Origin: Jimgerdemannia flammicorona
Taxonomy: Eukaryota
Length of the DNA stretch: 47,804 bases
Assembly (NCBI GenBank): GCA_003990765.1
Contig: RBNJ01000041.1
Span: 1 to 47,804 of the forward strand
Reading direction: 5' to 3'
Part shown: positions 3,346 to 45,692 of the stretch, piece by piece
Layout of the letters: each line of letters starts with the position of its first letter
Numbering within the stretch: position 1 is the stretch's first letter
The notes under the pieces: generated by a model
The model's input: the letters and a program-made list of their open reading frames with translations, nothing else
Told to the model about the DNA's origin: nothing
The model's database searches: none
Position numbers and translations under genes: made by a program

Positions 3346-3360
3346 ATTTGCGGAGCACTA

Positions 3361-6579: not shown

Positions 6580-6591
6580 ATTTGTATATGT

Positions 6592-7058
6592 TGTGACAGT
6601 ATAGCCAAATTTGGAAGAAGAAAATAGAGAATAGACACTTGATCGCACCCAGTCCCAAAGTAGTATAGCCTTATAGTTAGCAGTCTTCAATTTCGACATT
6701 GTCTAAATTCTTAAACATTATCCAAATCAAACACCCCAATTTAGTATAGCATTTCGACATTGTCTAAATTTCTAGACATTGTCTAAATGACTCATAACTT
6801 AGTCATATAACTCAGTAGCCATCTTATAGCTAGCAAACTTGTATAAATAACCCAGTATCTTCAAGTAAATAAACCTTAGATTGAAATAGTTCAAAGCAAA
6901 GAGATAGCAAAGGAACTAGTAAGCCTGCAGACAGATATACTTCGAACTCAACCACCCTCCCCTACAACTTCAAGAGACTCTGTGAGAGTCAGAACAGTCA
7001 AGTTTTCAAGATACAGAAATCTGACATACTTTCAAGAGTAAGCATCCGCTATGTTACA
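6592..7058 (+). repeat. 5' LTR of element A
   Basis: TGTGACA...TGTTACA; direct repeat of 12835-13301; TATAAA ~6842 and AATAAA ~6868. Confidence 0.97.
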
Positions 7059-7061
7059 ACT

Positions 7062-7172: not shown

Positions 7173-10100
7173 ATGGATATGAGACCACCAGTATTCCATG
7201 GATATATCTCAGATGAATCAATCATCACCTTCATTGACGATTTCAAGCAGTATGCTGCTGTAAGGACTCTGACAGCAGCACAGCAAGTAGCCCTCATGCC
7301 CTTCAGCCTACAAGGTCCTGCCAGAGCAGCATTCACAGCTGCAACCCATACAGGAAATGATGCCGATGCTATACTGATAGCACAGAAGACCTGGCTCTGA
7401 AATACATATTACACAGACGAGATCAAGCAAGTCCTGAAGGATCAGCTCAACACAACATGCCAAGGAATGAGCAAGGATCCAAACACATTCTATACCAGAA
7501 TTTGATATCAGATAATCCTCACAGATTATGCTGCTGCTATCCGAGATCAAGTAGCCAAAGCAATCTTCATAAAAGGAGTCCATCCAGAAATAGCCATGGC
7601 CATCCGCTCATCACCAGTAATTCTGGATCTGCCACAGAAGGTCACCTATGCTCAGCGATACTGGATAGCCAGACACCCATAAGACTATACAATGGAGAGA
7701 GTTACAGGAGTCAGAATCGAGGCACCCAAGGCAACCAGTGTGATCCCCACCACAATGATCAATTGAAACACACCTCAGCCAAAAGCTACAGAGCAGCAAA
7801 AGAACAGTGACCCTATGGAGGAACTCACCAAAAGGTTTGCTAAAATGACTGCCCACCTGGGAGATGTGGTAAAGAAAATCCGAGGAAGAGATCACCACCC
7901 TGTTCAGAAGTTTACCACCACCTCAGACAAGAAGAAAGGTACCTGCTCAGCTGTAGAGAAGAAGGCCACTACTTCTATGAATATATGAGTGAAACCAAAC
8001 GTAAGGCTCAACCAAGCAATGTTACACAAAACAAGGAGCAGGCCAATACAATCACCTTTGAAGAAATCGGAGAATCTGATGAAGAGGAATAGGAGGCCTA
8101 TCCTGCTCAGACCACCAAGAAGGATGCTCACAAAGAACCCTACAAGAGACCACCAGGAAGACCCAAGAAGAACTCAGTGGAAAAGTGGATGAAAACTGAT
8201 ACAGAAAGCCAAGCTGAAGAGATGGACCAAGATATTGAGCTGGAGCAAGCAGTTCAAGATATCATCCGAGGAACCACAGCCAGTGAAGGAGAAAAAGAAA
8301 AGAAGCTTCACAAGACCAAGACCTTCAAGTATGATATCTTCAAGGATCTCAGTCAACAAAAGGTCAATGCAACCTTTGGTCAGCTCACAGAAATCCCAAC
8401 ATTCAGACAGCAAATGAGATTTGGACTTGCCGAAACAACCAAGGAATAAGGATGGAAGATAACTGAGACCAATAATGTTCAAGAGGACTCAGGAGAAGAA
8501 AGTGAGGATAATCGCAAAACCTCTGCTTATGCAACATACCAAATCAAAGATAGAACCTTTGAAGCCATCATCGATATGGGAGCAGGAGGATGTCTCCTCA
8601 GTAAGAAGGCAGCAGACCACCTAGGTTGGGATGTGGAAGAAGCAACTAAGCTAGTATTCGTCATAGCCAATGGCATAAGAGCCACACCCCTGGGAAAGAT
8701 CCGAGATGTTCCCATCAAGATTGGAGGAGCAACAATCCCAGTAGATGTAATCATAACCAATGCCACCAACTATGACATTCTCATCAGCAATCAATGGCTT
8801 CACAAAGCCAAGGCAGTAATTGATCTCAATGCTCAGAAGATACAGATCACCTACTGGGGACAGAAGATACAAATTCCCATCAATGTCAACAAAGGAGTCC
8901 TGTCTGATATGGAGAAAGAAGAGAGTGAGCAAGAGGAAGCTTATATAGTGACCATTCCAAAGAAGAAGAAAGTTGGATAGATGAGTGAAGAAGAATGGTG
9001 TAAGAAGATTGCAGAAGATTATGCCCTACAAGGAGTCTGTTCTTATGGAATCAAGATGTACTGTATGGAGCATATCAATGATTGCTACCAATGTACCATC
9101 GGAACCAAGAAGATCTACCAGGAAAGAAGGCAGAAAGCTCTCGAAAAACAGATCAGGGAAGAAGAGAAGGAGAAAGATGATGAACCACCAGCCCTCCTAG
9201 AGGACAGTGATGATGAAGAAGAAATCAAGGTCAAGATTCAAAAGATCCACCCTGATACAGTCTTGCCAGAATACAAGTCAGAAAATGCAGCCAGAATGGA
9301 CATCGCTACAGTAGAAGAAACTGTACTGGAACCCCAGACAACTACCCTACTTGCAACTGGACTGGAGATGACTATCCCAAAGGATCATGTCGGGATTCTC
9401 AAGACAAGAAGCAGCCTGGCTAGGTGCAAAATCACAATCGAAGGAGGAGTCATTGATTCAGACTATACTGGAGAAATTCTACTCATTGCTAGGAACCACA
9501 ATCCTACAATTCCATTCCCAGTCAAGAAGAAGGACCAATTGGCACAAATGTTGATCTTCCCAATCATACAACCAAGGATCATAGAAGTCAAGAATCTGGA
9601 GGAAACAAAAAGAGGAAAGAAAGGATTTGGATCTATAGGAAAAGGAGTATTTGCCAGCACCAAGATCACCGAACTCAAGCATAAGAAGGAGGAAAACATG
9701 AGCAAGCACAGTTACACCATTGGAGACGAATTCCCACTCAAGGAGGAACTCAAGAAAATACTCTACAAATTCGAGAATGTCCTTGCCATGGATTTCAAGG
9801 ATATCAAGGGAAAGACCCCACACTACTATTACGAGGTAGATACTGGAGACACCAAACCAATTTATCAGAAGGCAAGACCTGTCCCGCCAGCTTACCGAGA
9901 ATGGCTCAGAGATGAAATCAAGTAGATAGAAGAAGCCAGCATCATCAAAGAAGCCAGTAGCCCCTGGTCTTCACCAGTTGTACTAGCCCTGAAAAAAGGA
10001 AGCAAACCTGGAGAATTTGCCTCAAGGCTCTGTATTGACTACAGAAAGCTCAATATAGTTACCAAGAAGGATCATCAACCACTGCCACTCATCAGTGACA

Positions 10101-11161
10101 TCCTTATAATACTGGGAGATGAAGCAGAGTACTACAGCACCTTGGACTTATACTCAGGATTTCACCAAATCAGACTCACAGAGATGGTAAGTGAAAATTC
10201 AGCCTTCATCACCCTAGACAGAACCTACATCTACCTATGAATGCCATTTGGAATGTGCAATACACCAGCAAGCTTTCAGCAAATGATGAACAAAATCTTC
10301 CACTATGATATGGGAAGATGGATGATGGTCTATGTTGATGATGTAATCATCTATAGCAAGACACCTGAGGAACATCTACAGCACATATAGCAGATAATGG
10401 AGAAACTAAGACAACATGGCCTTTATATCAAACCCAAGAAGTGCAAGTTTGCAGAAATCGAGATCTCCTACCTTGGCCATATTATCAATCAAGATGGAAC
10501 ATACACGGACCCCCTCAAAATACAAGCAGTAGCAGTATACCCAAGGCCCACTACTGTTACAGAAGCCCAAGCCTTCATGGGACTTGTCTCCTACTATCGC
10601 AAATTCATTAGAGGATTCTCCAACATCGCAGGTCCAATCTATGAACTCAACAAGAAGGATACCAAGTTCCAGTGGACTGGCAGACAACAAAAAGCATTTG
10701 ACAAACTCAAGATCAGACTAACTCAAGATCCCATCCTCAGATGACCCAATTGGACCCAAGAATTTATCCTTCAGATGGATGCAAGTGCACAGGGACTAGG
10801 AGCAGTTCTAGCTCAAAAAGAAGACAAAAAAGAGTATGTCATTGCATATCTTAGCTGCGGAACCCGAGGGGCTGAAAAAGAATACAAGTCCTACAAGTTG
10901 GAATGCCTTGCAGTTATCTGGGTTGTGGAAAAGTTCCACTACTATCTGGCTAGAAGACACTTCACCATCCAGATGGACCACTCAGCTCTTACCTGGCTAC
11001 TGACAACTGGACAACCCAAGAGAATCTATGCCAGATGGATAATGAAGTTACAAGCCTATGATGTAACTATCATATACTGCTCTGGAAGAACAAATTCCAA
11101 TACAGATACTCTCTCATGGATACCTCAAACTACCTCCAACCAACAAATCAATCATGAATAA
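7173..11161 (+). pseudogene. gag-pol: ORF1 of A: gag (CCHC knuckle), aspartic protease, dUTPase, RT, RNase H; nonsense mutations and one frameshift (~7946)
   Basis: AIIDMGAGG protease site, dUTPase motifs, RLCIDYRKLN, YVDD (~10331), MDASAQGLGAVL, KLECLAV; ends QQINHE*. Confidence 0.95.
9224..9640 (+). CDS. dut: trimeric-type dUTPase domain within pol of A
   Basis: All five motifs: AARMDI, KTRSSLA, GGVIDSDYTGEI, LAQMLI, RGKKGFGSIG. Confidence 0.95.
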
Positions 11162-12346
11162 GGAGCTCTACTATAGAATTATCACATACCTGGGATAGCG
11201 AAAGATACCCCAACATCTAGAAGAATGGACACAAATGATTATCAACAGGACATGGAAACAATTTGAAACTGATAGAGAAACACTGAAGAAAGGAAAACTA
11301 CTGGTCATACCAGAACACAAGAAGGAGCAAGTGATGAAATCAGTATATGAACTTGACCATCTAGGAGGAACAAATACATATGACAAGGCAAGAAGAACAA
11401 TATGGTAGCCAGGGATGGAGGAAGATATCAGACAATTTGCCAAGACATGCGACAAATGCCAGAAACAGAAACAAGACCAATGGAATCAAGCCCCAGAATC
11501 AGCACACATAGAACCAGTACCATTTGCCCATATAGCAATGAATGTAATTGGCCCTCTACCCTTGATCCTGACTGGTAACCGATACATCATTGTCATGTAG
11601 ACCTTTTTACGAAGTGGATAGAAGCAGGACTCCTCAAGGAAGTCAATGTACAGTCAATCACCAATTTCTTCTACAAGGAAATCATCTGCCAGTTCAAGAC
11701 CCCAACACAAGTAACTATAGATAGAGGAACAGAATTTGTAAACCAGCTCTTTGAGGTTCTCTACAAGAAGTACAAGATCCAGCACATTCAGACCACAGCC
11801 TATCACTCCCAAGGAAACAGACAAGTAGAAAGGACCAACAAAACCCTCAAGAATGTTATCGCCAAGATCTGTGATAACTACGAAAATGGGAATCACTATC
11901 TGCCAATAGCATTATCTGCTCTCTGAGATATCTGATCACAAAGTACTCACTTTACCCCTTGAGAAATGCTGTTTGGAGAAGAATGTTCTCAAGGAACCCT
12001 ATCATCCAATGGAGATGCTGTATGGAAACATGTGGACATGGAAATACAGAGACTATATCAAATCAGGAAGAAGGCTGAGGATTACATAACCAAGGTGCAG
12101 ACACTACAATGGAGGAATGCGGAAAAGACCCACAAGTCCTTGGAGATTATCAAGATAGGAGACAAGGTCCTAGTGTATCAGAATATGGTAGAAGCTTCAT
12201 GGTCACAAAAACTGGAGCCCAAGTGGGAAGGACCTTACCTTGTGCAAGATATAAAAGGGACCACCTTTTGGCTATGAAAACCCTCAGGCACAATAATCCC
12301 CACTACTATTCACCGAAACCGACTCAAGAAATATCATGGCCAGTAA
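11154..12346 (+). pseudogene. int: ORF2 of A: integrase (zinc finger, rve core, GPY/F) in its own frame
   Basis: The ATG overlaps the RNase H stop (CATGAATAA). Motifs: HLGG...TCDKCQK, TDRG-like IDRGTEF, TAYHSQGNRQVER, KLEPKWEGPY. Frameshift ~11597. Confidence 0.93.
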
Positions 12347-12797
12347 CAAAAGTACTGTGATGGCACTCAAGATCACTAGTGCTGCCCAAAGAGCCATCGA
12401 AAGACAATGGCACACCACCGAGCCTCCGACCATAGAGGCATACTATGAGGATATTCAGAGTATTGTGCAGACTCATCTCTCCCAGATCTCGCACTTTAGA
12501 GCCTATCAATATTGGACAGAATTCCAAGAGTACTTCAAGCTTGGACAGGTACTCAATCAGGATCCAGCAAAGACCAAGGAGGACTGGATTGCCGAGTGTC
12601 AACTCTCCCACTCACAGATCACTATTGTCAAAAGGATCCACAAGTTATTCCAAGAAGATGAACCAGCAATAGACCACCTGAGAGGAGTAACCCCTACTGA
12701 CTTCGAGAAAGTAAGAAGACATCATTGGGAAACAGTCATGCAGCAAATTGCACAGTACAAGACTATACAGACAGTTGAAGCCTGGGAGTTTGAATAG
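12336..12797 (+). CDS. ORF3 of A: intact 153-aa accessory protein of unknown function
   Basis: The ATG overlaps the integrase end and the ORF stops before the PPT. It has no stops, and its domain is shared with the LTR ORFs of B and C. Confidence 0.8.
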   Translation: MASNKSTVMALKITSAAQRAIERQWHTTEPPTIEAYYEDIQSIVQTHLSQISHFRAYQYWTEFQEYFKLGQVLNQDPAKTKEDWIAECQLSHSQITIVKRIHKLFQEDEPAIDHLRGVTPTDFEKVRRHHWETVMQQIAQYKTIQTVEAWEFE

Positions 12798-12834
12798 ATG
12801 CCCCAGGGACAAGACCATCTATTCAGGAGGAAGT

Positions 12835-13301
12835 TATGATGGTATAGCCAAATTTAGAAGAAGGAAATAGGGAATAGACACTTGATCGCACCCAGTCCCA
12901 AAGTAGTATAGCCTTATAGTTAGCAGTCTTCGATTTTGACATTGTCTAAATTCTTAGACATTATCCAAATTGAACACCCCGATTTAGTATAGCATTTCGA
13001 CATTGTCTAAATTTCTAGACATTGTCTAAATGACTCATAACTTAGCTGCGTAACTCAGTAGCCATCTCATAGCTAGCAAACTTATATAAATAACCCAGTA
13101 TCTTCGAGTGAATAAACCTCAGATCGAAATAGTTCAAAGCAAAGAGATAGCAAAGAAACTAATAAGCCTGCAGGCAGATATACTTTGAACTCAACCACCC
13201 TCCCCTACAACTTCAAGAGACTCTGTGAGAGTCAGAACAGTCAAGTTTTCAAGATACAGAAATCCGAGGTACTTTCAAGAGTAAGCGTCCACTATGTTAC
13301 A
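12835..13301 (+). repeat. 3' LTR of element A
   Basis: Direct repeat of 6592-7058, preceded by the PPT at 12825-12834. Confidence 0.97.
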
Positions 13302-14029
13302 ATGTTCAGGAGTTGGGGTTGTTTGTTTGGTTTGTTTTGATTCTCTGTTTTGATGTATCTCAGTACTTAGTATATATGCATTTGATCCTGATTGATAAGA
13401 TTCTGTTTATATAAATCTTGTGTTCTGTGACTTCATATTAACTCAGCTTTGTGTGCTGTGACTTTGGTTTAACTCAGCTTTATGATCTTACAGATGATTT
13501 CCAGATTTATTCAGAGGTTATATATAATTTCAGTGGCTTTGTTTAGAGGGTGACATGTGATTTCAGTGGCTTAGAGGTTGTGTGCTTACAACTCTCCCCT
13601 TCTTAGCTTTCAATGTCCTCATTAGGGCCTTCTAGTTTTGTTCTAGTATTATTATACTATTTGGATAGTCAAAAGTCTGATAAAGTCTATTTTTTCAGAA
13701 AGTAGTATACTTGTAGTATAGTTGTCTAATATGTTGGATTCACACATTAAAGGGTCATATATTCAATGCCATGTACCAGAAGTGATTCTGATGTCATTTA
13801 CTGCTGGAGAATTTCCTCTAAGAAATCTTCTTAAATGTCTATGCCTCATTTCCCACCAGTAGTATAGAGAGAATAGGCTGGCTTTCAGTTTTCCTGTTTT
13901 TCTAGAGGGTTGGTATTTTATCTTGGTTTGCTGAGTTCTTGATTTTATTTGTGATAATTATAATATTCTGAAGGGTAATATATAGTATGTACTGATAGAT
14001 ACAGAAGTGTTCAGGTTTTAGTTATTTAA

Positions 14030-30406: not shown

Positions 30407-31918
30407 TGTAATGGTGACCCCAGAATGATGACATCAGCACAGGAGACAGCCTTTCCTTATAAGCCACCAGATCGGAGCACAAGAAGATCATACGGCATAC
30501 GAGATGAGCAATGATGACCAACTGTGAGTTATTGTGACCACAGCATGAGTATCCTGAAGAATATAAAAGAAGGATCAAGGAACCACAGTAGCAGCAACCA
30601 ACAAGAACCACCAATCCCAAAATAGCTCAAAGACTTACCACAAATAAAATGCCTGCTGCTCACCAAACCTTAAGGTCAAGGAATTACCAAGATATCTCAG
30701 TCAAGGAAAGATATTCCAAGATATCAGAAGAGCCATGAGGACCTACTCAAGAAGGACTCCTAGCATCAACCTGGGTACTGCAGACCCTTATCACTTTATC
30801 CTCTACTGCTGCGAAATGGAAACAAGGATCACCATTGCTACTGAATGCCTCTAAATGTGGCAGGAGTACAAAATAGGAAATCTCCTCTGCTGGGAGTTCC
30901 CACAGGCTAGCACCCAAGAGCTACAAGATGCCACTCTGATGGATATATGCAAAACAAGAATAGCTAGGAAGATCCATCAGATCTTCAGGCATGCACCATG
31001 GTCAATCTCTAACTTGGAGTATGTTAGAGTCTCAGATTTCAGAGATCTATCATCCTGCTATATCAATGTACTAGAAGCCAGGGTGGCTACAGAAGCCCAG
31101 TCCACTATCACCCTTAATAACGAAGAAGTAGAAGACTTCTGGCACCCTATCCTTCAGGACAACCCAGATCATTTCCTGCAAGGATTGATCTCAGTATTCC
31201 AAGGCCCAAGCATCCAGGTTAGATCTCCCCAAGACCCCACATTTGTTTCTTATTTTGTGGAAGAGAACCTTATAGATTGGAGAGCTCCAGATCTTGTTCC
31301 CGATTTTCCCACCACAGCTAAACATGATGACGTCATCGGCGATGATGTCATCCCGCACAACATACCTAAAGTACACAAAGTATACAAAATGTGTGACAAT
31401 GAAGTATGCAAGATGTATGGCCTGCATGACAAATTCGCAGATCTCATCTCCTTCAGTGATGATGATGATGAGGATGAAGTCCCTATGGTTCTGAACTTTC
31501 TGCTCTAAGTTCTTTATTATACTGGATAATGCCAGCACCGGCATTCTGAGGTGATACAAAATTATTCCAGTACTAGTATTTTGATATGACACTAAATAAT
31601 GCCAGCACTGGAACTTAGTAGTTTTAGTTATTGGAATTTATATTTAGCTTTATATCTTAGCAACCATTGAATTATATTTTGTATAAATACCTCTCTTATT
31701 TCCTCTGAAATAAAGTCAGTTCCGGTTTCACTTATACACACTTTCTTGCAAGCAATCTAAGAGATAACAAGACAGTTAAAGATAAGAAGTTTGAGGACTA
31801 TAAGATCTTGGGAAGGCACTCCAATAAGAACTTACTTATAACAACTTAAGTTAGTCTAAGAGATACATCTTGAAAAGAATCTGGCATATTTGAAGGACTC
31901 AGCGACCACTATGTAACA
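30407..31918 (+). repeat. 5' LTR of B (1512 bp)
   Basis: TGTAA...TGTAACA; direct repeat of 39635-41147. Confidence 0.97.
30649..31508 (+). pseudogene. LTR-encoded accessory ORF, 5'-LTR copy (1-nt deletion plus a stop)
   Basis: Copy of 39877-40737. Confidence 0.8.
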
Positions 31919-34132
31919 ACTTGGTGTTCATTGGCTGGTGATTCAAGACGAATCCCTCACTTTCAAGCTGAAAAATAAACAACCCCCACAACAACTACCC
32001 TGACTACAAGAGTCACCCCTACAAGAATTCAAGACAAGATGGAAATGCGCCCCTCCATATTCTATGGATATACTACTGAAGAGTCAATCCTGACCTTTAT
32101 TGAAGACATTGAACAATTTGCCGCTGTACAAGCCCTTGGTGTAGATACTCAATTGGCTCTTCTACCAGTCAGCCTCAGAGGACCTGCCAGAGACAAGTTC
32201 AATGCAGCCACCATTGCTGATGCTGGTGCAGTCAAACTTGCCAACATGAAGGCCTTCCTTAGAATAATATATTATACTGAAAAGATCAAGCAAGCTCTCA
32301 AGGATCAACTCAATACTATCTTCCAGGGACTTAGTGAAGATCCCAACTCATTCTATACCCGAATCTGCCACCAGATTATCTTGGCTGGCTATGATGACTG
32401 CCTCAAGGAATAAATAGCAGATTCAATCTTCCTCAAAGGAGTTTACCCTGAAATTGTCCTAGTAATTCGGTCTACTCCAGCTGCACTGACCCTTGATCAG
32501 AAAGTGGTCTTTGCACAGAGATATTGGACAGCCAGATACCCTGCTGAACACTCAATGGAGAAAATAACTGGTATCAAGATGGAGCCATCAAAGCCAACTA
32601 GTATCTTACCTGCCACAGTTGTAAACAGACAACCAATCCCACCTACTCTCAAGACAGCCAAAGCTGACCCAGTGGAAGAACTTGCCAAGCAGTTCGCTGA
32701 GATGACTGCACACCTTGGTGATGTTGTTAGAGAAGTCTGAAGTGCCAACAGGAGACCAGTGCAGAGATTTGCAGCTGCTACAGAAGAATACAATATCACA
32801 TGCTTTAGATGTAGAGAAGAAGGCCACTATGCAAAGAGTTGCATGACCAAAATAAGATGCAAAGTCCAACCAAGCAATGCTAGCAGAACCAGAGAACAAA
32901 CTAATGCAGTAGTCATTGAGGAGATTGGTGATACTGATGATGAAGAATACTATGAGGAGCTCGAATTCTACTCTGCTACTGAAGGTACCAGAACCCGGTC
33001 CAAGCCCTATGATAGGAAGAGCAACAGCAAGCCAGTTGGAAGATCAAAAAAGACTCCAATTGTCACTATTCAAAGCAAGACCCAATACGAGAAGATTGAT
33101 CAAGACATGGAGTTAGACGAAGCTGCCTGCCAAATTATTGAAGGCACTACTCCAGTCTCAGGAGAAAGCGAGAGCAAGAAGGAACAGAAGCTGTGCAAGA
33201 CCAAGATCCACCAGTATGACATCTACAAGGACCTCAAGAAACAGAAGATCAATGCCACTTTTAGGCAGCTAGCTGAAGTCCCTACCTTCAGACAGCAGTT
33301 GAGAGTAGGACTTGTAACTACTGTCAAGAATCAAGAGTACAAGATTGTAGAAGCTCACAATGTACAAGAAGAATCTGAGAACTCAGTTGAAGAATCTGAA
33401 GATCAGCGCAAGACATCAGCCTATACCCCCTGCCAGATCGAAGACTGTATCTTTGATGCCATCATTGATACTGGTGCTGGAGAATGTCTCATGAGCAAGA
33501 AGGCAATTGACCACCTAGGTTGGGACATTGAAGAGTCCACCAAGATGGTCTATGTTACAGCAGACAGTACATGAGCTACCCCCCTTGGCAAAATCCGAGA
33601 AGTCCTCATCAAGATAGGAGGAGCTACTATCCCAGTAGACATGATTGTTACAAGTGCCACCAACTATGACATCCTCATTGGTAACCAATGGCTTTACAAG
33701 GCCAAGGCCATCATTGACCTCAATGCCCAGAAGATGCAGATCAACTACAGAGGGAGAAAGGTACAAGTTTCTATCAATGTCCACAAAGGAGTCCTGCCAG
33801 ATATGGAGGAAGAAGATGAAGAAGACACAGAGGTCTTCATGCACTTGGTGAACAAGAATAAGAACAAGATACCCAAGCTCACAGATGAGCAGTAGTATAA
33901 CAAGATTATCGATGGGTATGCCCCTCAAGGAAGATGCCCCCATGGTACTAGAATGTACTACTCTGAACACCTGAATAACTGCTGGTCCTGTATCAGCGAA
34001 GTCAGGAAAATCTGCTAATGGAAATACGAGCAAGAAGCTGCCGAAGCAAAAGGGAAAGCTGAAGAAGATGACCAGCCCCCAGAGCTTCAAGCTGACAGTG
34101 ATGATGAGGAGGAACAAGAATCAGACATCACC

Positions 34133-34543
34133 CTCAAGGTCAAGAAGTTTCACCCTGAAGTCAAGATCCCAGAATACAAGACTGAAGGAGCCATAGGAAT
34201 GGACCTTGCCAGCATCCAAGATGCTACTCTCAAACCACAGACCACCACCCTACTTGGTACTGAAATTGGAGTCAAGTTGCCAGAAAACCATGCTGGAATT
34301 ATCAAGACCAGGAGCAGTCTGGTCAAAAGTGAAATCTCAGTTGAAGGAGGAGTAATTGACCCTGATTACACTGGTGAGATTTTTCTCATAGTCAGAAATC
34401 ACAATCACACCACCCCCTTCAAAGTCAAGAAGCATGACAGGATTGGCCAGATGCTGATCCACGAAATCAAGAAGCCCAAGATTGTAGAGGCCACTGAACT
34501 TATCAAGACCAAGAGAGGAGAACAAGGCTTTGGATCTACTGGA
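34133..34543 (+). CDS. dut: dUTPase domain within pol of B
   Basis: GMDL, KTRSSL, GGVIDPDYTGEI, RIGQML, RGEQGFGSTG. Confidence 0.95.
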
Positions 34544-36010
34544 AGAGGAGCCTATGCTGCCACCAAGATTACTGAACTTGAGCATAAGAAAAACAAGGAC
34601 CAGAATAAGCACACATATACCATTGGAGAAAACTTTCCCCTGGAGGAACAACTTCTCAAGATCCTGCACCAGAACGAAGGAGTACTTGCTACAGACTTTA
34701 GGAATATCCACAATCAGGAACCCAAGTACTACCATGAAGTTGACACTGGTGATACCAAGCCTATCTACCAGAAAGCCAGACCCATACCACCTGCCTACAG
34801 AGAGTGGCTGCAAGCCGAACTCAAGGAAATGGAAGAAGCTGGAATCATCAAGCAAGCTATCAGCCCCTGGGTCTTACTCATTGTCCTTGCCCCAAAGAAA
34901 GGAAGTAAGTCTGGAGAGTTTGCACCAAGACTCTGCATTGACTACAGGAAACTCAATGCCATCACCAAGAAGGATAGATAGCTCTTGCTGAATATTCAAG
35001 AAATCCTTACTATCCTTGGAAGCAAAGCCAAATACTACACCACCTTGGATCTGTTCTCAGGCTTCCATCAGATCGGTCTCACTCAAGATGCCAGTGAGAA
35101 ATCAGCCTTCATTACACCTGATGCCACCTATATCTATCTGTGAATGCCATTTGGAATGTGCAATGTCCCAGTAAGTTTCCAGTGAATGATGAACAGAGTC
35201 TTCAGCAACGAGATTGGAAAATGGCTCTTTGTCTATATTGATGATATGATCATCTTCAGCAACACTGTACGGGAATATGTCAATCACATATAACTAGTCC
35301 TCAAGAGGCTCAAGGAGCATGACCTCTACATCAAGCCCAAGAAATACAAGTTTGCAGCTCAAGAAATCACCTACCTAGGGCACCTCATCAACCAGACTGG
35401 AATCCACACAGACCCCATGAAGATCGAGGCTGTTGCAGCCTATCCAAGACCCAGAATAACCACAGAAGTCCATGCCTTCCTTAGACTGGCCAGCTACTAT
35501 AGAAGATTCATCAAAGAACTCCAACATTGCAGCACCTATCTATGAGCTACTGAAGAAGGAGACCAAATTCGAATGGACCAAGGAGTACCAAGAAACCTTC
35601 AATGAACTCAAGACCAGGTTGACCCAAGCACCCATCCTCAGAAGACCAGACTGGAGCCTAGAATTCATCCTGCAGACAGATATAAGTGCTATAGGACTTG
35701 GAGCAGTCCTAGCTCAGAAGAAAGATGGACATAAATATGTCATCTCCTATGCAAGCTGAGGTACCCGCAGAGCAGAACAGAACTACAAGTCATGCAAGCT
35801 TGAATGCTTAGCGGTAGTTTGGGCAGTAGACAAGTTCTACTACTACCTAGCTAGAAAACACTTCACCATTCAAACAGACCATTCCGCTCTTGCCTGGCTA
35901 TTCCACACTCTGAACCCCAAAGGAATATATGCCAGATGGATCTACAGGCTACAAGAATATGACTGTACTGTCAAGCACTGCCCAGGAAAGACCAACACCA
36001 ATGCTGATGC

Positions 36011-38041
36011 TATAAGAGGGTTGCTTTTTAGGGTAACCGTTACGTAGTTCTGGAAAGGTTTTCTGGATATTCTAGAGGTTCTGGAAGACTGTTTTCTTAA
36101 GGTCAAGATCAACTTCATATGGAGTACATCCTCTACACTTATTGATTCCAAGATTGGGTTGACGTCTTAACCAAAGTCCTTTTTCGGACTAGTTCTGGAT
36201 GTTCAGGATTTTCTGTATTTCAGGAAGTTCAAGAAACTAAGACCAGCTTAGTTGAATTGGTGTATCACTGCAGACAATACCCAATTAGGAAATTTCATGA
36301 TGGGGTTAGAAGTGGGACCTAATAGGGAGCAGATTTACTTAAGAGTGATTTGTGGGTTATGGAATAGGTTTATTTGCTATTCATAATATTGCTATACTAG
36401 GAGTAATTGTGTGAAGAGATATTTGTGGGGAAGTATTCAGAAATGTTCTTGTGTATTTGAGTCTGAGATTCTGAGGTCTGGGAGAGGGGGTATTTATACT
36501 AGTGAGGAGCTATCTGGACTATGCTAGATATGGATATAGCACTAGGTGCTTTGCTGAGTCGGAATGCAGTCACATAGTACAAGTGTGATCTGACATATCA
36601 AGAGATCATCTGACTGCTGAGTCAGTTCACAGTCATGTCATACAAAGCTAATCTAACTATACTATGACTGCTAGGCTATTTATGGGTTTAGGTACTGTCT
36701 GAGTAGTTCTCGATGACATCACTATCAATTGCATCATCTCTGATAAAGTAGTTGTCTAGGAAGAGTGGTTCGTGGATTACTTCTCCTTATTTGCTAAGGT
36801 AGTAATACATTGGGACTTCGTCTCCATCCTACAGGATAGCATCGTCTGTCTCGTAGGCTGGATAAGGTGTTGGTGGGCGAAGGATGGGTGTATTGTCTTC
36901 ACTTTCATCGGATTTACTGTCTGTATACCTTCTATAGGTTACAGCACTATGAGTTGCAGGATTATAGTAAGCTGGCAGCTGTGGTTCATGTCGCTCATAC
37001 TCAGGTAGTGGAGTGGTTGGTTCGATCTCAAGGGTTGTCTGAAGGTACAGGTTGTGTTCTCCAGTCTCTTCATTGTAGTTGAAGTAATTGGGTGTAATGC
37101 GGGTTGGTATTCGTGCCAGTGGTCATTGTCCCAATAAGTCTCGTATGCAGTTATGAACTGTTGTAAGTTCATCGGCAAGATTGGCAGTGTGATCAGGGTT
37201 GGCAGAGATCCTTGGCTAGAGGTCATGTCAGTGTCAGAGGGGTCATTGTCTTCTGCTTCATCTTCATCGAAGTGGATTATATCATAGATGTCCTTCATGG
37301 TATATCCAACTTGGGGCATTTGCAGGATGTGATCATTGGGGTGTGGGAAGGTTCTATCTGTGGTTTCGACATACTCGAGGTACTTGTGGTTGAGTTCTTG
37401 TATCATATCATCGATTTGGCCATAGGACAGGGTAGCAACCATTTCACTGGTAGTAACTTGGAGGTGGGAAATAAAGGTGCTGTACTCATAGAAGAGTTCT
37501 CGATGTTTGCAGGCGATGAGCTTCTGGTGTTGAGATATCTGGATAATGTCTGTATCATAATGGTGTTTGACCATGTCTTCCAGGAGGCGGCCGATCTGGT
37601 AGTAGCTTGAGATTTGTCCAATTCGGTGGGCCTCGCTAAGCATGTTCAGAGCATTCCATTGGGCTTCTATGAAGTAGAGGGGTGCTAGGCTATGGATATT
37701 CATGAGGGGCAGAGGGGGTGTAGCTCAGTTGACAATGGCATTCCAAATGTCAGCACAGATGCGGTTGTAGATCTCAGTGGTCATGTTTGTGTGTTTGAAA
37801 GTTGTAGTTGTTGTTTGTTTTGGTTCTCTGATTTGACGCATCTCGGTACTCAGTATATATGCATTTGGTCCTGATTGGTAAGATTCTGTTTGTGTAATTC
37901 TTGTATTCTGTGACTTCATATTGACTCAGCTTTGTGATCAAGCAGGTGATTTCCAGATTTGTTCAGAGGTCATGTGAGATTTCAGTGGCTTGTTCAGAGG
38001 GTGATGTGTAATTTCGGTGGCTTAGAGGTTGTGCGCTTACA
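36011..38041 (-). mobile_element. solo LTR of family C (2031 bp); 5-bp TSD GATGC/GATGT
   Basis: Inserted in the ADALSR codons of B RNase H. The empty site is visible in the B-like copy near 45085. Confidence 0.95.
36787..37784 (-). pseudogene. family C LTR-encoded accessory ORF (~332 aa ancestral; two stops and a 1-nt deletion)
   Basis: MTTEIYNRICADIWNAIVN*...SYYQIGRLL...LFYEYSTFISHL...DGDEVPMYYYLSK*; frame restored by comparison with 5592-6579. Confidence 0.8.
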
Positions 38042-38090
38042 GATGTACTCTCAAGAATACCCTGAAACATCCCCATCAAGACTATTCAAC

Positions 38091-39296
38091 ATGAATAAGG
38101 AGCTATACTATAGATTAATCAACTACCTTGGGCAGCAGAAGATGCCCAACCACCTCGAACCCTAGACAATCACCATCATCAACCAGACTTGGAAATAGTT
38201 TGAATTAGACAACACTATATTCAGAAAAGGAGAAAAGCTAGTAATACCTGAACACAAGAAGTATCAAGTAATGAAGGAAGTACACAAGCAAGGACACTTA
38301 GGAGGAACCAACATATATAACAAGGCAAGAAGAACCATATGGTGGCCTAAGATGGAAGAAGACCTGTGCCAATTTGTCAAAGGGTGTGACAAGTGCCAAA
38401 AACAGAAACAAGATCAGTAAGACCAGGCACCTGGATTATCAAGAATTGAGCCTATCCCCTTCCACCACATTGCAATGGATATCATTGGACCACTACCAGT
38501 AACACTATCAGGAAACCACTATATTATAGTTATTATAGACCTCTTCACTAAATGGATAGAGGCAGGAGCATTACAAGAAGCCAATGCCCTCTCTATAGCC
38601 AATTTCCTATACTGAGAAATCATCTGCTGCTACAAGACACCAAAGAAAATCACAACAGACCATAGCACAGAATTTGTCAATGGATTCCACGAGATAATAT
38701 ACCAGAAATACAAGATCCAGCACATCAAGACCACTGCATACCACTCTCAAGGAAATGGACAGACAGAAAGAACCAACAAGACTCTCAAGAACATCCTAGC
38801 AAAGATCTCAGAGACATATGAGAATTGGGATAACTATCTCCCAACTACCCTCTCTATTCTATGAGACATATGGTCACAGAATACACATTTTACCCCAAGA
38901 GAGCTGCTCTTCAGAGAAGAAGATTCTAATGGAACCTCAGCTACAAATCTAGACCTAACTTGGAGACGGGTTGATGTGGAAATCCAGAGACTACACCAAA
39001 TCAGGAAGAAGGCTGAAGATTACATCACCAAGTCACAAGCACTGACAAGGAAGAATGCAGAAAAGAATTAAAAGGCCCTAGAACTCATTCGAATTAGAGA
39101 AAAGGTTCTACTGTATTGAAATATGGTAGAAGCCTCATGGTCACGAAAACTGGAGCCCAAATGGAAAGGACCCTTCTATATGCAAGATATCAAGGGAACT
39201 ACCTTCTGGCTTAGAAAAATCTCAGGGACCATACTGCCTACCATGGTACATAGGAACAGACTCAAGAAGTACCACAAACCTAGAAGCAAAACATGA
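38091..39296 (+). pseudogene. int: ORF2 of B: integrase in its own frame
   Basis: CATGAATAA overlap; HLGG..GCDKCQK, TAYHSQGNGQTER, KLEPKWKGPF, VHRNRLKKY. Confidence 0.93.
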
Positions 39297-39634
39297 TGAC
39301 TGCCTGTGAGGTTCTAGTCCACAAATCGTAACAACATGTCCCGTGACCAGCAGGCTATCTGTCTGGACCATTCTCTAAGGGATATGGCACTGGCAACTAC
39401 TCATCCATGAAGACTTTCACAGTCAGAGGAGTTCGAACTGTCAACTGATTGGTCAAGATCAGAATCAGGCCCTTGCTCTATATGAAGGGAGTGACCCTTC
39501 ACCATCATACCAAAATACAAAGAGAAGATACCAGCCCATAAACACCCCTTGCCAGAGGTTATGGGATCAGCAAATTTTTCAGGACTGGAGCAATAAATAA
39601 GGATGCTCAGGAAGATCCTTATTTAGGAGGAAGA

Positions 39635-41147
39635 TGTAACAGTGACCCCAGAATGATGACATCAGTACAGGAGATAGCCTTTCCTTATAAGCCACCAGAT
39701 TGGAGTACAAGAAGATCATACAGCATATGAGATGAGCAATGATGACCAACTGTGAGTCATTGTGACCACAGCATGAGCATCTTGAAGAATATGAAAGAAG
39801 GATCAAGGAACCACAATAGCAGCAACCAACAAGAACCACCAATCCCAAAATAGCTCAAAGACTTACTACAAACAAAATGCCTGCTGCCCATCAAACCTTA
39901 AGGTCAAGGAATCACCAAGATATCTCGGTTGAGGAAAGGATGTTCCAAGACATCAGAAGAGCCATGAGGACCCACTCAAGAAGGACTCCTAGCATTAACC
40001 TGGGTACTGCAGGCCCTTATCACTTTATCTTCTACTGTCACGAAATGGAAACAAGGATCACCATTGCTACTGAATGCCTCCAAATGTGGCAGGAGTATGA
40101 AATAGGAAACCTCCTCTGCCAGGAGTTCCCACAGGCCAGCACCCAAGAGCTACAAGATACCACTCCTATAGATATATATAAAACAAGAACAGCTAGGAAG
40201 ATCTATCAGATCTTCAGGCATACACCATGGTCAATCCCCAACTTGGAGTATGTTAGAGTCTCAGATTTCAGAGACCTATCATCCTGCTGTATCAATGCAC
40301 TAGAAGCCAGGGTGGCTACAGAAGCCCAGTCCACTATCACCCTTAATAGCGAAGAAGTAGAAGACTTCTGGCACCCTATCCTTCAGGACAACCCAAATCA
40401 ATTTCTGCAAGGATTGATCTCAGTATTCCAAGGCCCAAGCATCCAGGTTAGATCTCCCCAAAACCTCACATTTATTTCTTATTTTGTGGAAGAGAACCTT
40501 ATAGACTGGAGAGCTCCAGATCTTGTTCCCGATTTTCCCACCACAGCCAAACATGATGATGTCATCGGTGATGACATCATCCTGTGTGACATACCTGAAG
40601 CACACGAAGTACATGAAATGCGCGACAATGAAGTATACAAGATGCATAGCCTGCATGATGAATTCGCGAATCTCATCTCCTTCAGTAATGATAATGACGA
40701 GGATGAAGCCTCCATGGTCTTGAACTTTCTGCTCTAAGTTCTTTGTTACACTGGATAATGCCAGCACCAGCATTCTGAGGTGATACGAAATTATTCCAGC
40801 ACCAGTATTTTGATGTGACACTAAATAATGCCAGCCCTGGAACTTAGTAGTTTTAGTTATTGGAATTTATATTTAGCTTTATATTTTAGCAACTATTGAA
40901 TTATATTTTATATAAATACCTCTCTTATTTTCTCTGAAATAAAGTCAGTTCCAGTTTCACTTATACACACTTCCTTGCAAGCAATCTAAGAGATAACAAG
41001 ACAGTTAAAGATAAGAAGTTTAAGGACTATAAGACCTTGGGAAGACACTCCAATAAGAACTTGCTTATAACAACTTGAGTTAGTCTAAGAGATACTCCTT
41101 GAAGAGAATCTGGTATATTTGAAGGACTCAGTAACCACTATGTGACA
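39635..41147 (+). repeat. 3' LTR of B (1513 bp)
   Basis: Follows the PPT; TGTAACA...TGTGACA. Confidence 0.97.
39877..40737 (+). CDS. intact 286-aa LTR(U3)-encoded accessory protein of element B
   Basis: Stop-free 861-nt ORF inside the 3' LTR, upstream of the TATA box (~40911); homologous to ORF3 of A and the LTR ORF of C. Confidence 0.82.
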   Translation: MPAAHQTLRSRNHQDISVEERMFQDIRRAMRTHSRRTPSINLGTAGPYHFIFYCHEMETRITIATECLQMWQEYEIGNLLCQEFPQASTQELQDTTPIDIYKTRTARKIYQIFRHTPWSIPNLEYVRVSDFRDLSSCCINALEARVATEAQSTITLNSEEVEDFWHPILQDNPNQFLQGLISVFQGPSIQVRSPQNLTFISYFVEENLIDWRAPDLVPDFPTTAKHDDVIGDDIILCDIPEAHEVHEMRDNEVYKMHSLHDEFANLISFSNDNDEDEASMVLNFLL

Positions 41148-42779
41148 ATATATACTCACCACTATTACTGCAAATGCTATCTCCCGAATTCTTAAGAAAT
41201 CAATCTTGCAAAATTTGCTCAAACTGATCATTACTCTAGTTCTGAGACAGTAATATCTGCAAAACCAGAAAACAGTCCAAATGATCTCAATCAAGTATCG
41301 ATTATTGCCTTGTAAAAAGTCAGTGAGCTATATTTGTATATTTGTAACAAATGTTAGTTGACTAGAAAGATATTTTTCGATTCCCAAATATATATATATA
41401 CTCACCCTCAGATTTTTGAGGTACTCTTTGAAAAATTCCAATGTGGGATCCGGTGGATCTGAAAATGATGGAAGTTGTTCTGTACTAATAAACCCATCAT
41501 AGCATATAACACAGGATCTTTTATCGATAAGAAGTAAGCACAATAGAGAATCTTAGTTGGCATTGTTAATCAATCTCAGATTTGGAACAATGTGGGTGAG
41601 CATGGGATCCACAAGGCACTTTTCAAATTACTTGTGGATTTCCCTTCAGAAATCATTCATAATGATCTTTGCCTACAAACATGATGAGGTAAATATCTAA
41701 ATTAAAATTTTCTCGAATAAGTAGCAATGAATGAAATAAATATTAAAAAAATTAATATAGTTATGTACCTCTGCATAGAGGTCTTGGTCATTAGGTAAAT
41801 CTAGTTTTGAGGATTTGAAGGAAGTATACAGTACATCAATGAAGGCATTGCACAATTGCAGGTCAGGGAACAGCTCTGCAATAATGAAAGCTCATCTTAA
41901 CTCTTTGGGAAATTCTTTGGAAAGGTCCTCAGGTTCACTTACTATCTCTCCTTTAGTAGTAATTAAACGTTCCCTAAGCATTATTTGACAAATAGATTCT
42001 GAGCAAGTCCATTGTCAATTTATACCTAACTAGCAGGATTCCAAGGTAAAGAGAACATGTGCTGCAGGATTAGGTAAAGGGGTAAAAGAGGTACACTCCA
42101 CTTACTCCACTTTAATGAGATTTAGAGTAACTTCTAGAAATGCATTAGACTGCTTAAGCAAAGCAATAGACAAATACATATTTAATGCTATCAGCATTTG
42201 TTCAGCATTATTATTCCATCAAATGGCTGACATATAATATATTATATATATATTTATTCATCTGATCCATGAGTATAAGTAAAAATATAGACTGGCCAAA
42301 AGCTTGTTAATGTGTTTATTTGTACATATTATCTATGAGTCATAAGTAAAAATATAGACTAGCCAAAAGCTTGTTAATGTATTTATTCTTGCATCTGATC
42401 CATAGCTTGTTAATGTTATTCATGTATCTGTTCCATAAGCTATAAGCAATGAAGCTATAGTCAAAAATTTGTTTAATATATAAGTATATGTCTATATATA
42501 TTATAAATTGGGCTTTAGCCAAAAGATGATACCAAAAGCTTTATATATCTATATTAATCAGTCTAGTTAATCAGTATAAAAAAAAAGACATGTATCTATT
42601 ATCCTTCTATCATTTTAAAAAGGAAGAAAGGTGTAATTTAATTTAATATATATTTATGCAGCTCATTCTTGTACCATAAGTAAAAATAAAATATAAAGAG
42701 AACTATGAACATCCATATTACTCTTCTATTTACCTGCTATAACTACCAAAAATTTGCATGAAGTGACCAGACCATCAGT

Positions 42780-44052: not shown

Positions 44053-45692
44053 CAGTACATTCTTTTCTACATTTTTTCTCATCAGTACTTGTAACTTGAT
44101 GATGTAATCTTCAGCCTTCTTCTTGATTTGGTGTAGTCTCTGGATTTCTGCATCAACCTGTCTCTAAGTTAGATCTAGATTTGTGGCTGAGGTTCTATCT
44201 GAATCTTCTTCTCTGAAGAGCAGTTCTCTTGGGGTAAAGTGTATGCTCTGTGACTATATGTCTCATAGGACAGAGAGAGCAGTTAGGAGGTAGTTATCCT
44301 AATTCTCATATGTCTCTGAGATTTTTGCCAGAATGTTCTTGAGAGTCTTGTTGGTTCTTTCTATCTGTCTATTTTCTTGAGGGTGGTACATAGTAGTTCT
44401 AATATACTGAATCTTGTATTTCTGATACATTATCTCATGAAATCTATTGACGAATTCTGTACCATGGTCTATTGTAATTTGCTTTAGTGTCTTGTAGTAG
44501 CAGATGATTTCTCAGTATAGGAAGTCAGCTATAGAGAGGGCATTGGCTTCTTATAATGCTCCTGCTTCTATCCATTTTGTAAAGAAGTCTACAATAACTA
44601 TAATATAGTGGTTTCCTGATAGTATTACTGGTAATAGCCCAATGATATCTATTATGATATGGTGAAAGAGAATAGGCTCAATTTTTGATGATCTAAGTGC
44701 CTTGTCTTACTAATCTTGTTTCTGTTTTTGGCACTTATCATACTCTTTGACAAATTGGTATAGGTCTTCTTCTATTTTGGGCCACCATATAGTTCTTCTT
44801 ATCTTGTTATACATATATGTTGGTTCCTCCTAGATATCCTTGCTCATATACTTCCTTCATTACTTGATACTTCTTGTATTTGGGTATTATTAGCTTTCCT
44901 TCTTTTCTAAGTATAGTATTATCTAGTTCAAACTGTTTCCAAGTCCAGTTGATGATGGTGATTGTCCAGAGTTCAAGGTGGTTGAGCATCTTCCACTGTC
45001 CAAGATAGCTGATTAATCCATAGTATAATTCCTTATTCATATTAGATAGTCTTGATGGAGGTATTTCAGAGTATTCTTGAGAGTGTATCAGCATTGGTAT
45101 TAGTTCTTCCTGAGTGGTACTTGACAGTACAGTCATACTCTTGCAGCCTGTAGATCTATCTGACATATATTTCTTTAGGGTTCAGAGTATGGAATAGCCA
45201 GGCAAGAGCAGAATGGTCTGTTTGAATGGTGAAGTGTTTTCCAGCTAGGTAGTAGTGGAACTTATCTACTACCCAAACTACTGTTAAGTATTTGAGCTTG
45301 TATGACTTATAGTTCTGTTCTGCTCTGTAGATACCTTGGCTTGCATAGGAGATAACATATTTATGTCCATCTTTCTTCTAAGCTAGGACTGCTCCAAGTC
45401 CTATAGCACTTATATCTGTCTGCAGGATGAATTCTAGGTTCCAGTCTAGTCTTTTGAGGATAGGTACTTGGGTCAACCTAATCTTGAGTTCATTGAAGGT
45501 TTCTTAGTATTCCTTGGTACATTTAAATTTGGTTTCCTTCTTCAGTAGCTTATAGATAGGTACTGCAATATTGGAGTATTCTTTGATGAATCTTCTATAG
45601 TAGCTGGCTAGTCCAAGAAAGACATGAACTTCTATAATAGTTCTGGATCTCAGATAGGGTACAATAGTCTCAATCTTCATGGGGTCTATATG
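44053..45692 (-). pseudogene. pol: degraded family-B RT-connection/RNase H/integrase segment
   Basis: Reverse complement of ~35405-36010 + 38047-39068 without the solo LTR; retains the ATGAATAA overlap. Confidence 0.9.

Follow-up and report, generated by a model that had tools for sequence, protein, structure and literature searches.

In textbook LTR retrotransposons and retroviruses, integrase is produced by proteolysis of Pol, and the Gag:Pol ratio is set by frameshifting or readthrough; Ty3/gypsy integrase is normally cleaved out of a single Pol polyprotein. Skipper, with a separate protease ORF, Ogre, with an intron inside pol, and the foamy viruses, whose Pol comes from a dedicated spliced mRNA, all depart from the usual scheme of a single Gag-Pol with readthrough or frameshifting, as does the clade described here. 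In these three systems the split falls 5' of protease, between protease and RT, or 5' of pol as a whole, rather than at the RNase H-integrase boundary.

Fungal viruses and the SART1 retrotransposon provide documented cases of ribosomes reinitiating at UAAUG or AUGA once a long ORF has ended (PMC10275272, accessible portion). In the accessible portions of the sources on CHV1 hypovirus (UAAUG), HvV190S, and SART1 (PMC10275272; PMC2699510), these stop-restart systems resemble our elements in that a long 5' ORF ends at a stop overlapping or directly adjoining the next start, which is in another frame; their hosts include fungi, and one of them is a retrotransposon. They rely on upstream or downstream RNA elements, whereas none was detected at the junction studied here, and they include no LTR retrotransposon or integrase. 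Spacing in our elements, which are described here from sequence, reaches 74 nt. The Caulimoviridae, as far as the available text of PMC5902531 and PMC10275272 goes, are also comparable, being reverse-transcribing relatives of the Metaviridae with consecutive, closely abutting ORFs and reinitiation. However, they have no integrase, and reinitiation there is driven by an encoded transactivator; no such factor is evident here, where ORF3 has no known family. No LTR retrotransposon whose integrase forms a cistron of its own was found in the literature searched (subscription journals, Repbase notes, and supplements lay outside the search), and the accessible portions of PMC2864245, PMC5408684, PMC3248453, and PMC10275272 do not describe such a layout.

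The window (the whole 47,804-nt stretch of DNA analyzed, from Jimgerdemannia flammicorona) contains three decayed Ty3/gypsy copies, denoted A, B, and C, in which gag, protease, dUTPase, RT, and RNase H are followed by integrase (Table 1). They resemble canonical Ty3/gypsy elements (Metaviridae) in their LTRs, CCHC-knuckle gag, protease-(dUTPase)-RT-RNase H-integrase order, and an integrase with an HHCC finger, a DDE core, and a GPY/F-like C-terminus. Pfam recovered protease, an RVT_1-type RT, RNase H, and integrase in this order in A and B (in A as RVP, dUTPase, RVT_1, and RT_RNaseH, with rve in the integrase remnant). The dUTPase (PF00692) lies between protease and RT at 8981–9922 in A (E = 2.9e-24) and at 34019–34978 in B (E = 1.4e-28), and is also present in relatives P0003, P0006, P0007, P0008, P0012, P0018, P0040, and P0048. 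Fungal dUTPase-bearing Ty3/gypsy elements have been described, namely, PosPlaTy3 and Phanerochaete elements (PMC2864245, accessible portion).

Table 1. Coordinates of element features in the window
Feature	Position	Strand	Details
Copy A 5' LTR	6590..7059	+	93% identity over 470 nt to 12833-13302
Copy A ORF1 remnant (gag, protease, dUTPase, RT, RNase H)	7188..11161	+	tblastn with P0003; Pfam
Copy A junction ATGAATAA	11154..11161	+	integrase ATG 11154 overlaps ORF1 stop TAA 11159
Copy A integrase remnant	11154..12346	+	tblastn with P0215 from residue 1; rve domain
Copy A ORF3, 153 aa, open	12336..12797	+	ATG overlaps integrase stop as ATGGCCAGTAA
Copy A 3' LTR	12833..13302	+	repeat match to 6590..7059
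Copy B 5' terminal repeat (1.5 kb)	30407..31919	+	92% identity to 39635-41148
Copy B ORF1 remnant	32060..36014	+	gag with zinc knuckle, protease, dUTPase, RT, RNase H
Foreign ~2 kb repeat in copy B	~36012..38041	+	boundaries approximate; alignment break
Copy B junction ATGAATAA	38091..38098	+	RNase H frame closed earlier by TGA 38063-38065
Copy B integrase remnant	38091..39299	+	one frame, 7 in-frame stops, terminal TGATGA 39294-39299
Copy B 3' terminal repeat	39635..41148	+	repeat match to 30407..31919
Copy C truncated RT/RNase H-integrase fragment	44059..45824	-	86-88% identity to B
Copy C junction ATGAATAA	45040-45033	-	earlier stops TGA 45068-45066, TAA 45045-45043

The difference lies at the 3' end of pol. 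Canonical Ty3/gypsy integrase is the C-terminal part of Pol, released by protease, whereas here ORF1 stops in the RNase H-integrase linker and integrase has a start codon of its own. Integrase within one Pol polyprotein is a usual feature of Ty3/gypsy elements and not a formal membership criterion; judged by RT phylogeny and domain order, these elements remain Ty3/gypsy despite the split pol, and they belong to a Ty3/gypsy clade whose hosts are probably arbuscular-mycorrhizal (Glomeromycotina-like) fungi. In a different gypsy element of the same window, which serves as a control (14424–16424, minus strand), a single frame runs through RNase H and integrase.

All three copies are damaged, and the window contains no open integrase ORF. 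The ORF1 remnant of copy A has one frameshift, in gag near 7930, and from ~7925 to 11161 is a single frame with seven internal stops and a terminal TAA (11159–11161); the internal stops are a mix of TGA, TAA, and TAG, and an alternative genetic code was therefore rejected. The ORF1 remnant of copy B is interrupted within the RNase H C-terminal motif by a foreign repeat, which is 82% identical to 4817–6585, has a tail matching 13318–13590, and ends 50 nt 5' of the integrase ATG.

At the homologous RNase H/integrase boundary, ATGAATAA is found in all three copies, with zero indels across the boundary in the alignment, and in each copy the reading frame that starts at its ATG begins with MNKELYY and is +1 to that of RNase H. 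A 15-nt block around this ATG is identical between A and B, whose overall identity is 70.5% over 1238 columns; the run ties for fourth to fifth longest in those columns. The boundary also coincides with the termini of intact proteins: in tblastn, the alignment of the relative ORF1 P0003 to copy A runs to the final residue of P0003, at 11158, and residue 1 of the stand-alone integrase P0215 aligns at 11154 in A and 38091 in B. The original prediction had described a conserved start/stop overlap in all three copies. The motif, its position, and the +1 frame stand, but TAA 11159–11161 is the first RNase H-frame stop in A only. An in-frame TGA lies nine codons 5' of the junction in B and C, with an additional TAA in C, so that the 8-nt stop-to-ATG overlap of A becomes a spacing of 25 nt in B and C if the TGA is counted. 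These early stops occupy positions read as Arg or Gln in relatives, and decay in the window is mostly by transitions, which suggests that they are probably secondary. The linkers preceding the junction had been said to differ between copies; that of B does, but the difference is the inserted foreign repeat.

The nearest intact relatives of these elements come from soil metagenomes and Rhizophagus, within a clade of hundreds of metagenome proteins plus annotated Rhizophagus genes. An integrase core was carried by only 12 of the 120 best RT-RNase H relatives of copy A, and by seven of the 34 that are at least 1200 aa long. A NADALSR-type motif was present in 103 of the 120, of which 59 terminate within 45 residues past the motif, 28 extend farther but lack an HHCC finger, nine run into an HHCC finger, and seven do otherwise. 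Four ORF1 relatives end in H/Y-E-stop, as a ATGAATAA-type overlap would predict. In most close relatives gag and pol are fused, which leaves the boundary before integrase as the only translational one.

The complementary search with the integrase of an external locus (L002) gave a matching picture: its 120 best relatives were all stand-alone ORFs (41%–100% identity, at least 344 bits), typically ~410–450 aa long, and the best fused RNase H-integrase protein was more distant (251 bits, 36% identity). A homologous start Met was found in 104 of the 120 (97 with the strict pattern M-[D/N/E]-x-x-L-Y-Y-G-L and seven short or variant); two others had 12–18 extra residues and 14 were internal fragments. 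No conserved Met was found in the linkers of fused relatives. In several cases the database source names label these stand-alone integrases "IS30/InsO transposases."

A tree of 152 RT-RNase H rows agrees with inheritance of the split. The fused/unfused label required six changes, against a mean of 47.7 when shuffled (0/500 shuffles as low), and copy A grouped with 16 rows, all of which stop just past RNase H, in a 17-row set that has 100% local support. Contigs of family A, to which copy A belongs, assembled from four public runs in two studies, have sense codons at the stops private to copy A (11196 and 11407), and many retain the base that copy A lost near 11596. They span the junction ungapped, with no indel at 11025–11240 among the best-supported differences (380 more lie beyond these). 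Separately, one low-depth family A contig (X1 record 4) contains four gap letters somewhere within 11032–11183.

The proposal that integrase is a fixed separate ORF and not a product of random decay is thus upheld by intact relatives, by other family A copies, and by the RT-RNase H tree, and the least-mutated copies showed no continuous RNase H-integrase frame. We consider it very probable, on comparative sequence grounds, that ORF1 ends in the RNase H-integrase linker and that integrase is a separate downstream cistron with its own conserved AUG. The heavy decay of all three window copies would also fit a break passed down as a defect in a dead or non-autonomous lineage that obtains its integrase in trans. 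However, the break is common to lineages only 41%–50% identical at the protein level, and it is flanked by long open ORFs (ORF1s of 1263–1569 aa and integrases of 410–450 aa in relatives), and all three ORFs are open at external locus L001. Such a defect is disfavored by the intact relatives, and we regard it as extremely improbable.

At the DNA level, the junction could be compared across three external loci and the three decayed window copies. Of the 80 metagenome loci kept, L001, L002, and L067 were the only members of the split clade; the other loci with an integrase match mostly keep RNase H and integrase in a common frame, with ~12 differing in frame. IMG/VR yielded four loci (identity of at most 34%) and a prokaryote genome collection 14 (full-length matches of at most 36% identity, two short fragments at 41%–42%), and neither set added to the comparison. 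L002 has a TGA, 2 nt, and then the ATG of an open 445-aa integrase in the −1 frame. L001 consists of three ORFs (gag, PR-RT-RH, and IN), with a TAG and ATG separated by 30 nt in the same frame and a second stop between them, and L067 has a TAA, 74 nt, and ATG in the −1 frame. L002 and L067 each have one in-frame stop farther 5' in RT-RNase H. The start/stop overlap is therefore not a general feature: it is confined to this family and a few relatives, and other lineages place the ATG 2, 30, or 74 nt after the stop in different frame relations.

These relations bear on whether integrase is still made as an RT-RNase H fusion, through a +1 or −1 frameshift, stop readthrough, or a short intron removing the stop. 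Metagenome ORF calls break at any stop and so cannot by themselves separate an own cistron from recoding. A shift is formally possible where the RNase H and integrase frames overlap, by 87 nt in A and ~120 nt in L002, and B reads CCC-TGA-A, which we take to be similar to known +1 shift-prone sites. But the frame relation varies by lineage (+1, −1, 0, −1), and this together with the variable spacing argues against both frameshifting and frame-fusing splicing. Frameshifting is impossible as a link in L001 and L067, where the two frames share no overlap, and L001 has two in-frame stops. No GT occurs from the RNase H motif to the ATG in five of the six sequences, and a start Met kept by most stand-alone integrases and not conserved in fused linkers would be needless. 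Fusion by recoding or splicing is thus disfavored and, in our estimate, very unlikely.

How a separate integrase cistron is translated is less clear-cut. We tentatively favor coupled termination-reinitiation, in which ribosomes would complete the long ORF1 on the full-length RNA and then reinitiate at the nearby integrase AUG, which is presumably used as a start. Integrase output would then be far below that of Gag-PR-RT-RH, and in family A a second reinitiation could occur at the integrase/ORF3 overlap. Consistent with this reading, stop and AUG overlap or lie 2–74 nt apart, and family A has stop-start overlaps at two successive junctions. The 74-nt gap of L067 is borderline, and long for coupled reinitiation. 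Known long-ORF reinitiation sites generally require a stimulatory element, and no stimulatory RNA structure was found at the junction in 10 windows of 56–103 nt (z from −1.05 to +1.59), as judged from single-sequence folds of sequences too few for covariation.

The null folding result matches another route, in which the separate integrase cistron would be translated from a dedicated subgenomic mRNA, through splicing from a leader donor to an acceptor just 5' of the integrase AUG or from a promoter in the RNase H region; this resembles retroviral env or foamy-virus pol. Such an RNA would require the same conserved AUG and ORF layout and no stimulatory structure, and would allow any frame relation or spacing, including the 74 nt of L067. 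ORF3s of LTR retrotransposons are, moreover, typically expressed from spliced messages (accessible portion of PMC5408684, the bdelloid paper). On the other hand, AG is absent from the 34-nt linker of A and the 86-nt linker of L067, so an acceptor would need to sit farther 5', inside the RNase H coding sequence, and the recurrent stop-start overlaps would be compaction and nothing more. We therefore consider a subgenomic message somewhat unlikely, if a serious candidate.

Internal ribosome entry at the linker (IRES-like or cap-independent) on the full-length RNA, independent of ORF1 termination, would fit the unstructured stretch 5' of the AUG, which has no G over 34 nt in copy A, and the conserved integrase ATG, which no other in-frame ATG precedes in A, L001, L002, and L067. 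L002, however, is not G-poor there, and cellular-type IRES activity is difficult to establish; we judge this route quite unlikely.

A third ORF had also been proposed, in an ORF1-IN-ORF3 layout with a further stop/start overlap at the integrase 3' end. The integrase remnant of copy A has a TAG at 11196 (14 codons in), a TAG at 11406, a 1-nt frameshift near 11596, and more stops beyond, including TGA 12275, where the equivalent position in B reads Arg; its native stop is likely TAA 12344. That TAA does overlap the ORF3 ATG at 12336, with the reservation that TGA 12275 comes earlier. The ATGATG of B at 39293 overlaps TGATGA as proposed, but merely 12 codons follow, and the three-ORF layout holds for family A whereas B has no ORF3. 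Searching 1.84 billion representatives returned four ORF3 matches, of which three are close relatives starting at the same Met (65%–71% identity), to which, with family A, ORF3 is restricted, and one is weak (30% identity, E = 8e-06). No Pfam family was found for ORF3, and an Atlas feature search gave unnamed or unrelated clusters only. In a single comparison, ORF3 had a weak 33-residue match to the ORF 3' of the L002 integrase (E = 0.002).

Returning to reinitiation, a more doubtful extension is that the whole LTR-retrotransposon clade uses a true polycistronic RNA, reinitiating after a ~1500-codon gag-pol without an obvious structured stimulator or virus-encoded transactivator, and with some families reinitiating again for a third protein. 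If so, the stop-restart strategy of caulimoviruses and fungal viruses would extend to the Metaviridae, and integrase dosage, not Gag:Pol dosage, would be the translationally controlled step.

With its integrase on a separate cistron, this large group of retrotransposons from soil fungi must produce the enzyme in a way not usually attributed to elements of this kind. The clade is large and apparently successful, with gag mostly fused to pol and its sole translational boundary before integrase. Annotation pipelines that expect RT, RNase H, and integrase in one frame would mislabel these elements as defective or non-autonomous and name their integrases bacterial "IS30/InsO transposases." For the elements themselves, integrase abundance would be adjustable independently of RT, and the clade would provide either a naturally occurring eukaryotic model for studying how ribosomes reinitiate once a very long ORF has ended or a novel type of subgenomic RNA.

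The window proved to be a nest of transposons, as judged by self-comparison and Pfam scans of every open stretch of at least 80 codons. Among them are three decayed copies (A–C) that we assign to Ty3/gypsy by their LTRs, domain order, and RT type. Nucleotide identity of A to B and C is only ∼66%–70%. Protease, dUTPase, RT (RVT_1), RNase H, and integrase core domains were found in both A and B, and a gag zinc knuckle additionally in B. Unlike the usual Ty3/gypsy element, with its single Pol polyprotein, these copies have integrase split off from the frame that runs from gag to RNase H (ORF1).

Features of the window and of three external loci
Feature	Position	Strand	Remarks
Copy A, complete LTR element	LTRs 6590–7059 and 12833–13302		LTRs 93% identical
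Copy A junction ATGAATAA	11154–11161	+	
Copy A ORF3	12336–12797		153 codons open
Copy B, second element between 1.5-kb repeats	30407–31919 and 39635–41148		repeats 92% identical
Copy B junction ATGAATAA	38091–38098	+	
Long open frames, one in each copy B repeat	30855–31505; 39820–40734		217 aa; 305 aa
Copy C, truncated fragment	44059–45824	−	86%–88% identical to B
Copy C junction ATGAATAA	45040–45033	−	
Unrelated gypsy element, decayed	14424–16424	−	RNase H and integrase share a frame
Adjacent chromodomain ORF	14021–14260	−	whole span 14021–16424
∼2-kb repeat family, no Pfam domain	36012–38041; 4817–6585 with 13318–13590; 3363–4197; 45695–46671		
hAT-family dimerisation domain	2691–2945		
Internally repetitive open frames	17198–19142; 20065–20993		second block: weak extensin-like matches, below Pfam cut-off
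L001 (external) gag	1–2919		open
L001 PR-RT-RNase H	2898–4964		open
L001 integrase	4977–6266		open
L001 junction			stop TAG, spacer 30 nt, start MDIQLYEAIQHYL..., same frame as ORF1; second in-frame stop between ORF1 and integrase
L002 (external) junction			stop TGA, spacer 2 nt, start MDPDLYSGLKEYL..., frame −1; integrase open, 445 aa
L067 (external) junction			stop TAA, spacer 74 nt, start MEFELYIHITDYL..., frame −1

The original prediction placed a start/stop overlap at the RNase H/integrase boundary. We located it in A, B, and C, which align across the boundary without indels. Each copy reads MNKELYY from the ATG of the overlap, a frame +1 to that of RNase H. The TAA of the overlap, expected to terminate the RNase H frame, is the first stop in A but not in B and C, where an in-frame TGA lies nine codons upstream, followed in C by one further TAA. 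At these early stops relatives read Arg or Gln (...SRIPR...) and copy A reads CAA; most simply, the stops would be transition decay. Nor is the integrase frame open in any of the three copies, that of A being closed after 14 codons by a TAG at 11196. The differing linkers that had been cited against decay include, in B, a foreign ∼2-kb repeat (∼36012–38041) inserted inside the RNase H C-terminal motif. Intact relatives place the same boundary: an ORF1 protein (P0003) ends ...YNHE-stop, compared with ...INHE-stop in copy A, and its last residue aligns at 11158 (tblastn), and residue 1 of a stand-alone integrase (P0215) aligns to 11154 in A and 38091 in B.

Between ∼7925 and 11161 the ORF1 frame of copy A has seven internal stops and is never shifted; a single frameshift lies in gag, near 7930. 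An alternative genetic code was ruled out, since the stops mix TGA, TAA, and TAG. Nearly all differences between A and other copies are transitions (195 transition and 10 transversion places in sequencing run X1). The surrounding pile is itself nested: copy A is inserted into another member of the ∼2-kb repeat family, and a further member adjoins the truncated end of copy C. The open frames in the terminal repeats of B match no Pfam family, and such frames are unusual in an LTR.

The element was found in no RNA run. We compared, over 10400–12400, family A contigs of at least 80% likeness from four DNA-type runs (X1–X4) in two studies. At 11196 nearly all of them read C instead of T (depth 109.5/114.2 in X1, 23.4/26.4 in X2, 22.9/22.9 in X3) and at 11407 they read G, so both early integrase stops are private to copy A. 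Many contigs also have an extra base at ∼11596, where the integrase frame of A changes. Among the best-supported differences, a list that leaves out 380 more, no indel fell within 11025–11240, and the junction was bridged without gaps in X2 (record 12), X3 (record 19), and X4 (record 27); one low-depth X1 contig (record 4) has four gap letters somewhere within 11032–11183. These less-mutated copies thus show no continuous RNase H–integrase frame, in agreement with a break that is fixed and not a product of decay. The unrelated gypsy element, with both domains in one frame, serves as an internal control.

Integrase had also been predicted to overlap a third frame. A stop/ATG overlap (ATGGCCAGTAA) is indeed present in A, but the corresponding ATGATG of B opens just 12 codons. 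ORF3 of copy A is uninterrupted, whereas stops break up the remainder of the element about every 100 codons. Three metagenome proteins match it at 65%–71% identity, starting at the same Met; it belongs to no Pfam family, its Atlas neighbours are uninformative, and no counterpart was found in B. The external locus L002 has a long open frame after integrase, again +1, with a weak 33-residue match to ORF3. With so few relatives and none in B, the ORF1–integrase–ORF3 layout holds as a trait of family A and not of the clade.

Leveraging a search of 5.8 billion proteins with the RT–RNase H part of copy A (X at stops), we analysed the best 120 relatives. The nearest, at 45%–50% identity, come from soil-type metagenomes and Rhizophagus. 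An integrase core is present in just 12 of the 120, and in just seven of the 34 among them with at least 1200 aa. Eight long dUTPase-bearing proteins (1263–1569 aa, several on ∼7-kb contigs) span gag to RNase H and end 13–31 residues past an NADALSR-type motif. This motif occurs in 103 of the 120, of which 59 end at most 45 residues beyond it, 28 have tails of 46–300 residues without an HHCC finger, nine continue into the finger, and seven are other. A sister group (P0022, P0026, P0029, P0034, P0041) lacks dUTPase and integrase and has a Cys/His-rich tail of ∼200–290 residues past RNase H, ending ...ADLD, which gives the broad clade another type of ORF1 terminus.

A FastTree tree was inferred from 152 RT–RNase H segments (copy A plus 59 with short tails, 31 with long tails, and 61 fused), excluding rows without the motif or with <400 residues before it. 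The fused/unfused label changes six times, compared with a mean of 47.7 for shuffled labels (0/500 shuffles as low). The 17-row set that contains copy A has 100% support, which in FastTree is local only; its other 16 rows all end just past RNase H.

A metagenome contig scan kept 80 loci, three of them in the split clade (L001, L002, and L067). L002 and L067 have one in-frame stop each, further upstream in RT–RNase H. Both kinds of boundary occur in L001, an intact relative: gag overlaps PR-RT-RNase H by ∼20 nt at −1, the arrangement of a classical gag-pol frameshift, and integrase is a third ORF. The best 120 matches to the L002 integrase (P0122; 41%–100% identity, at least 344 bits) are all stand-alone ORFs, mostly of 408–455 aa: 97 of at least 389 aa open with the strict Met pattern, seven share the Met in a shorter or variant form, two have 12–18 extra N-terminal residues, and 14 are internal fragments. 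A control search among proteins of 780–2225 aa, limited to scoring the 8000 candidates with the most words in common, gave at best 251 bits and 36% identity. Fused relatives have a continuous linker of 88–155 residues and no conserved Met. Metagenome pipelines give several stand-alone integrases of this clade the name "IS30 family transposase" or "transposase InsO family protein", likely a systematic misannotation of eukaryotic retrotransposon integrases.

How would integrase be translated? Its frame relative to ORF1 varies by lineage (+1 in the window; −1, 0, −1 elsewhere), and the RNase H and integrase frames do not overlap in L001 and L067, which excludes a programmed frameshift as the general route. 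In five of six sequences the stretch from the RNase H motif to the ATG lacks GT, so a frame-fusing GT–AG intron would have to remove conserved RNase H residues. In A, L001, L002, and L067 no in-frame ATG precedes that of the conserved Met, which suggests that translation starts there. Ribosomes could not credibly reach it by leaky scanning over an ORF1 of ∼4.5 kb. Three candidate routes remain: ribosomes may reinitiate once ORF1 has terminated, translate a subgenomic mRNA, or enter internally.

We tentatively favor reinitiation, in which ribosomes would resume at the integrase ATG after terminating ORF1, because stop and start overlap or lie 2–74 nt apart, because family A has the second overlap between integrase and ORF3, and because four relatives of ORF1 have the terminus [H/Y]-E-stop expected of the ORF1/integrase overlap. 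The mechanism is documented in fungal viruses and the SART1 retrotransposon (PMC10275272; PMC2699510). Against it, ten folded windows gave no RNA structure signal at the junctions (z-scores −1.05 to +1.59), and 74 nt is long for coupled reinitiation. A subgenomic mRNA, spliced or internally promoted, matches all of the anatomy equally well, and we consider it a somewhat less likely source of integrase.

Gag is fused to pol in most close relatives, so the sole translational boundary precedes integrase. The literature searched, which did not extend to subscription journals, Repbase notes, or supplements, held no description of an LTR-retrotransposon integrase as a separate cistron. The separate-integrase structure is solidly supported by these comparisons of sequence, and should be of moderate to high interest to specialists in retroelements and translation.
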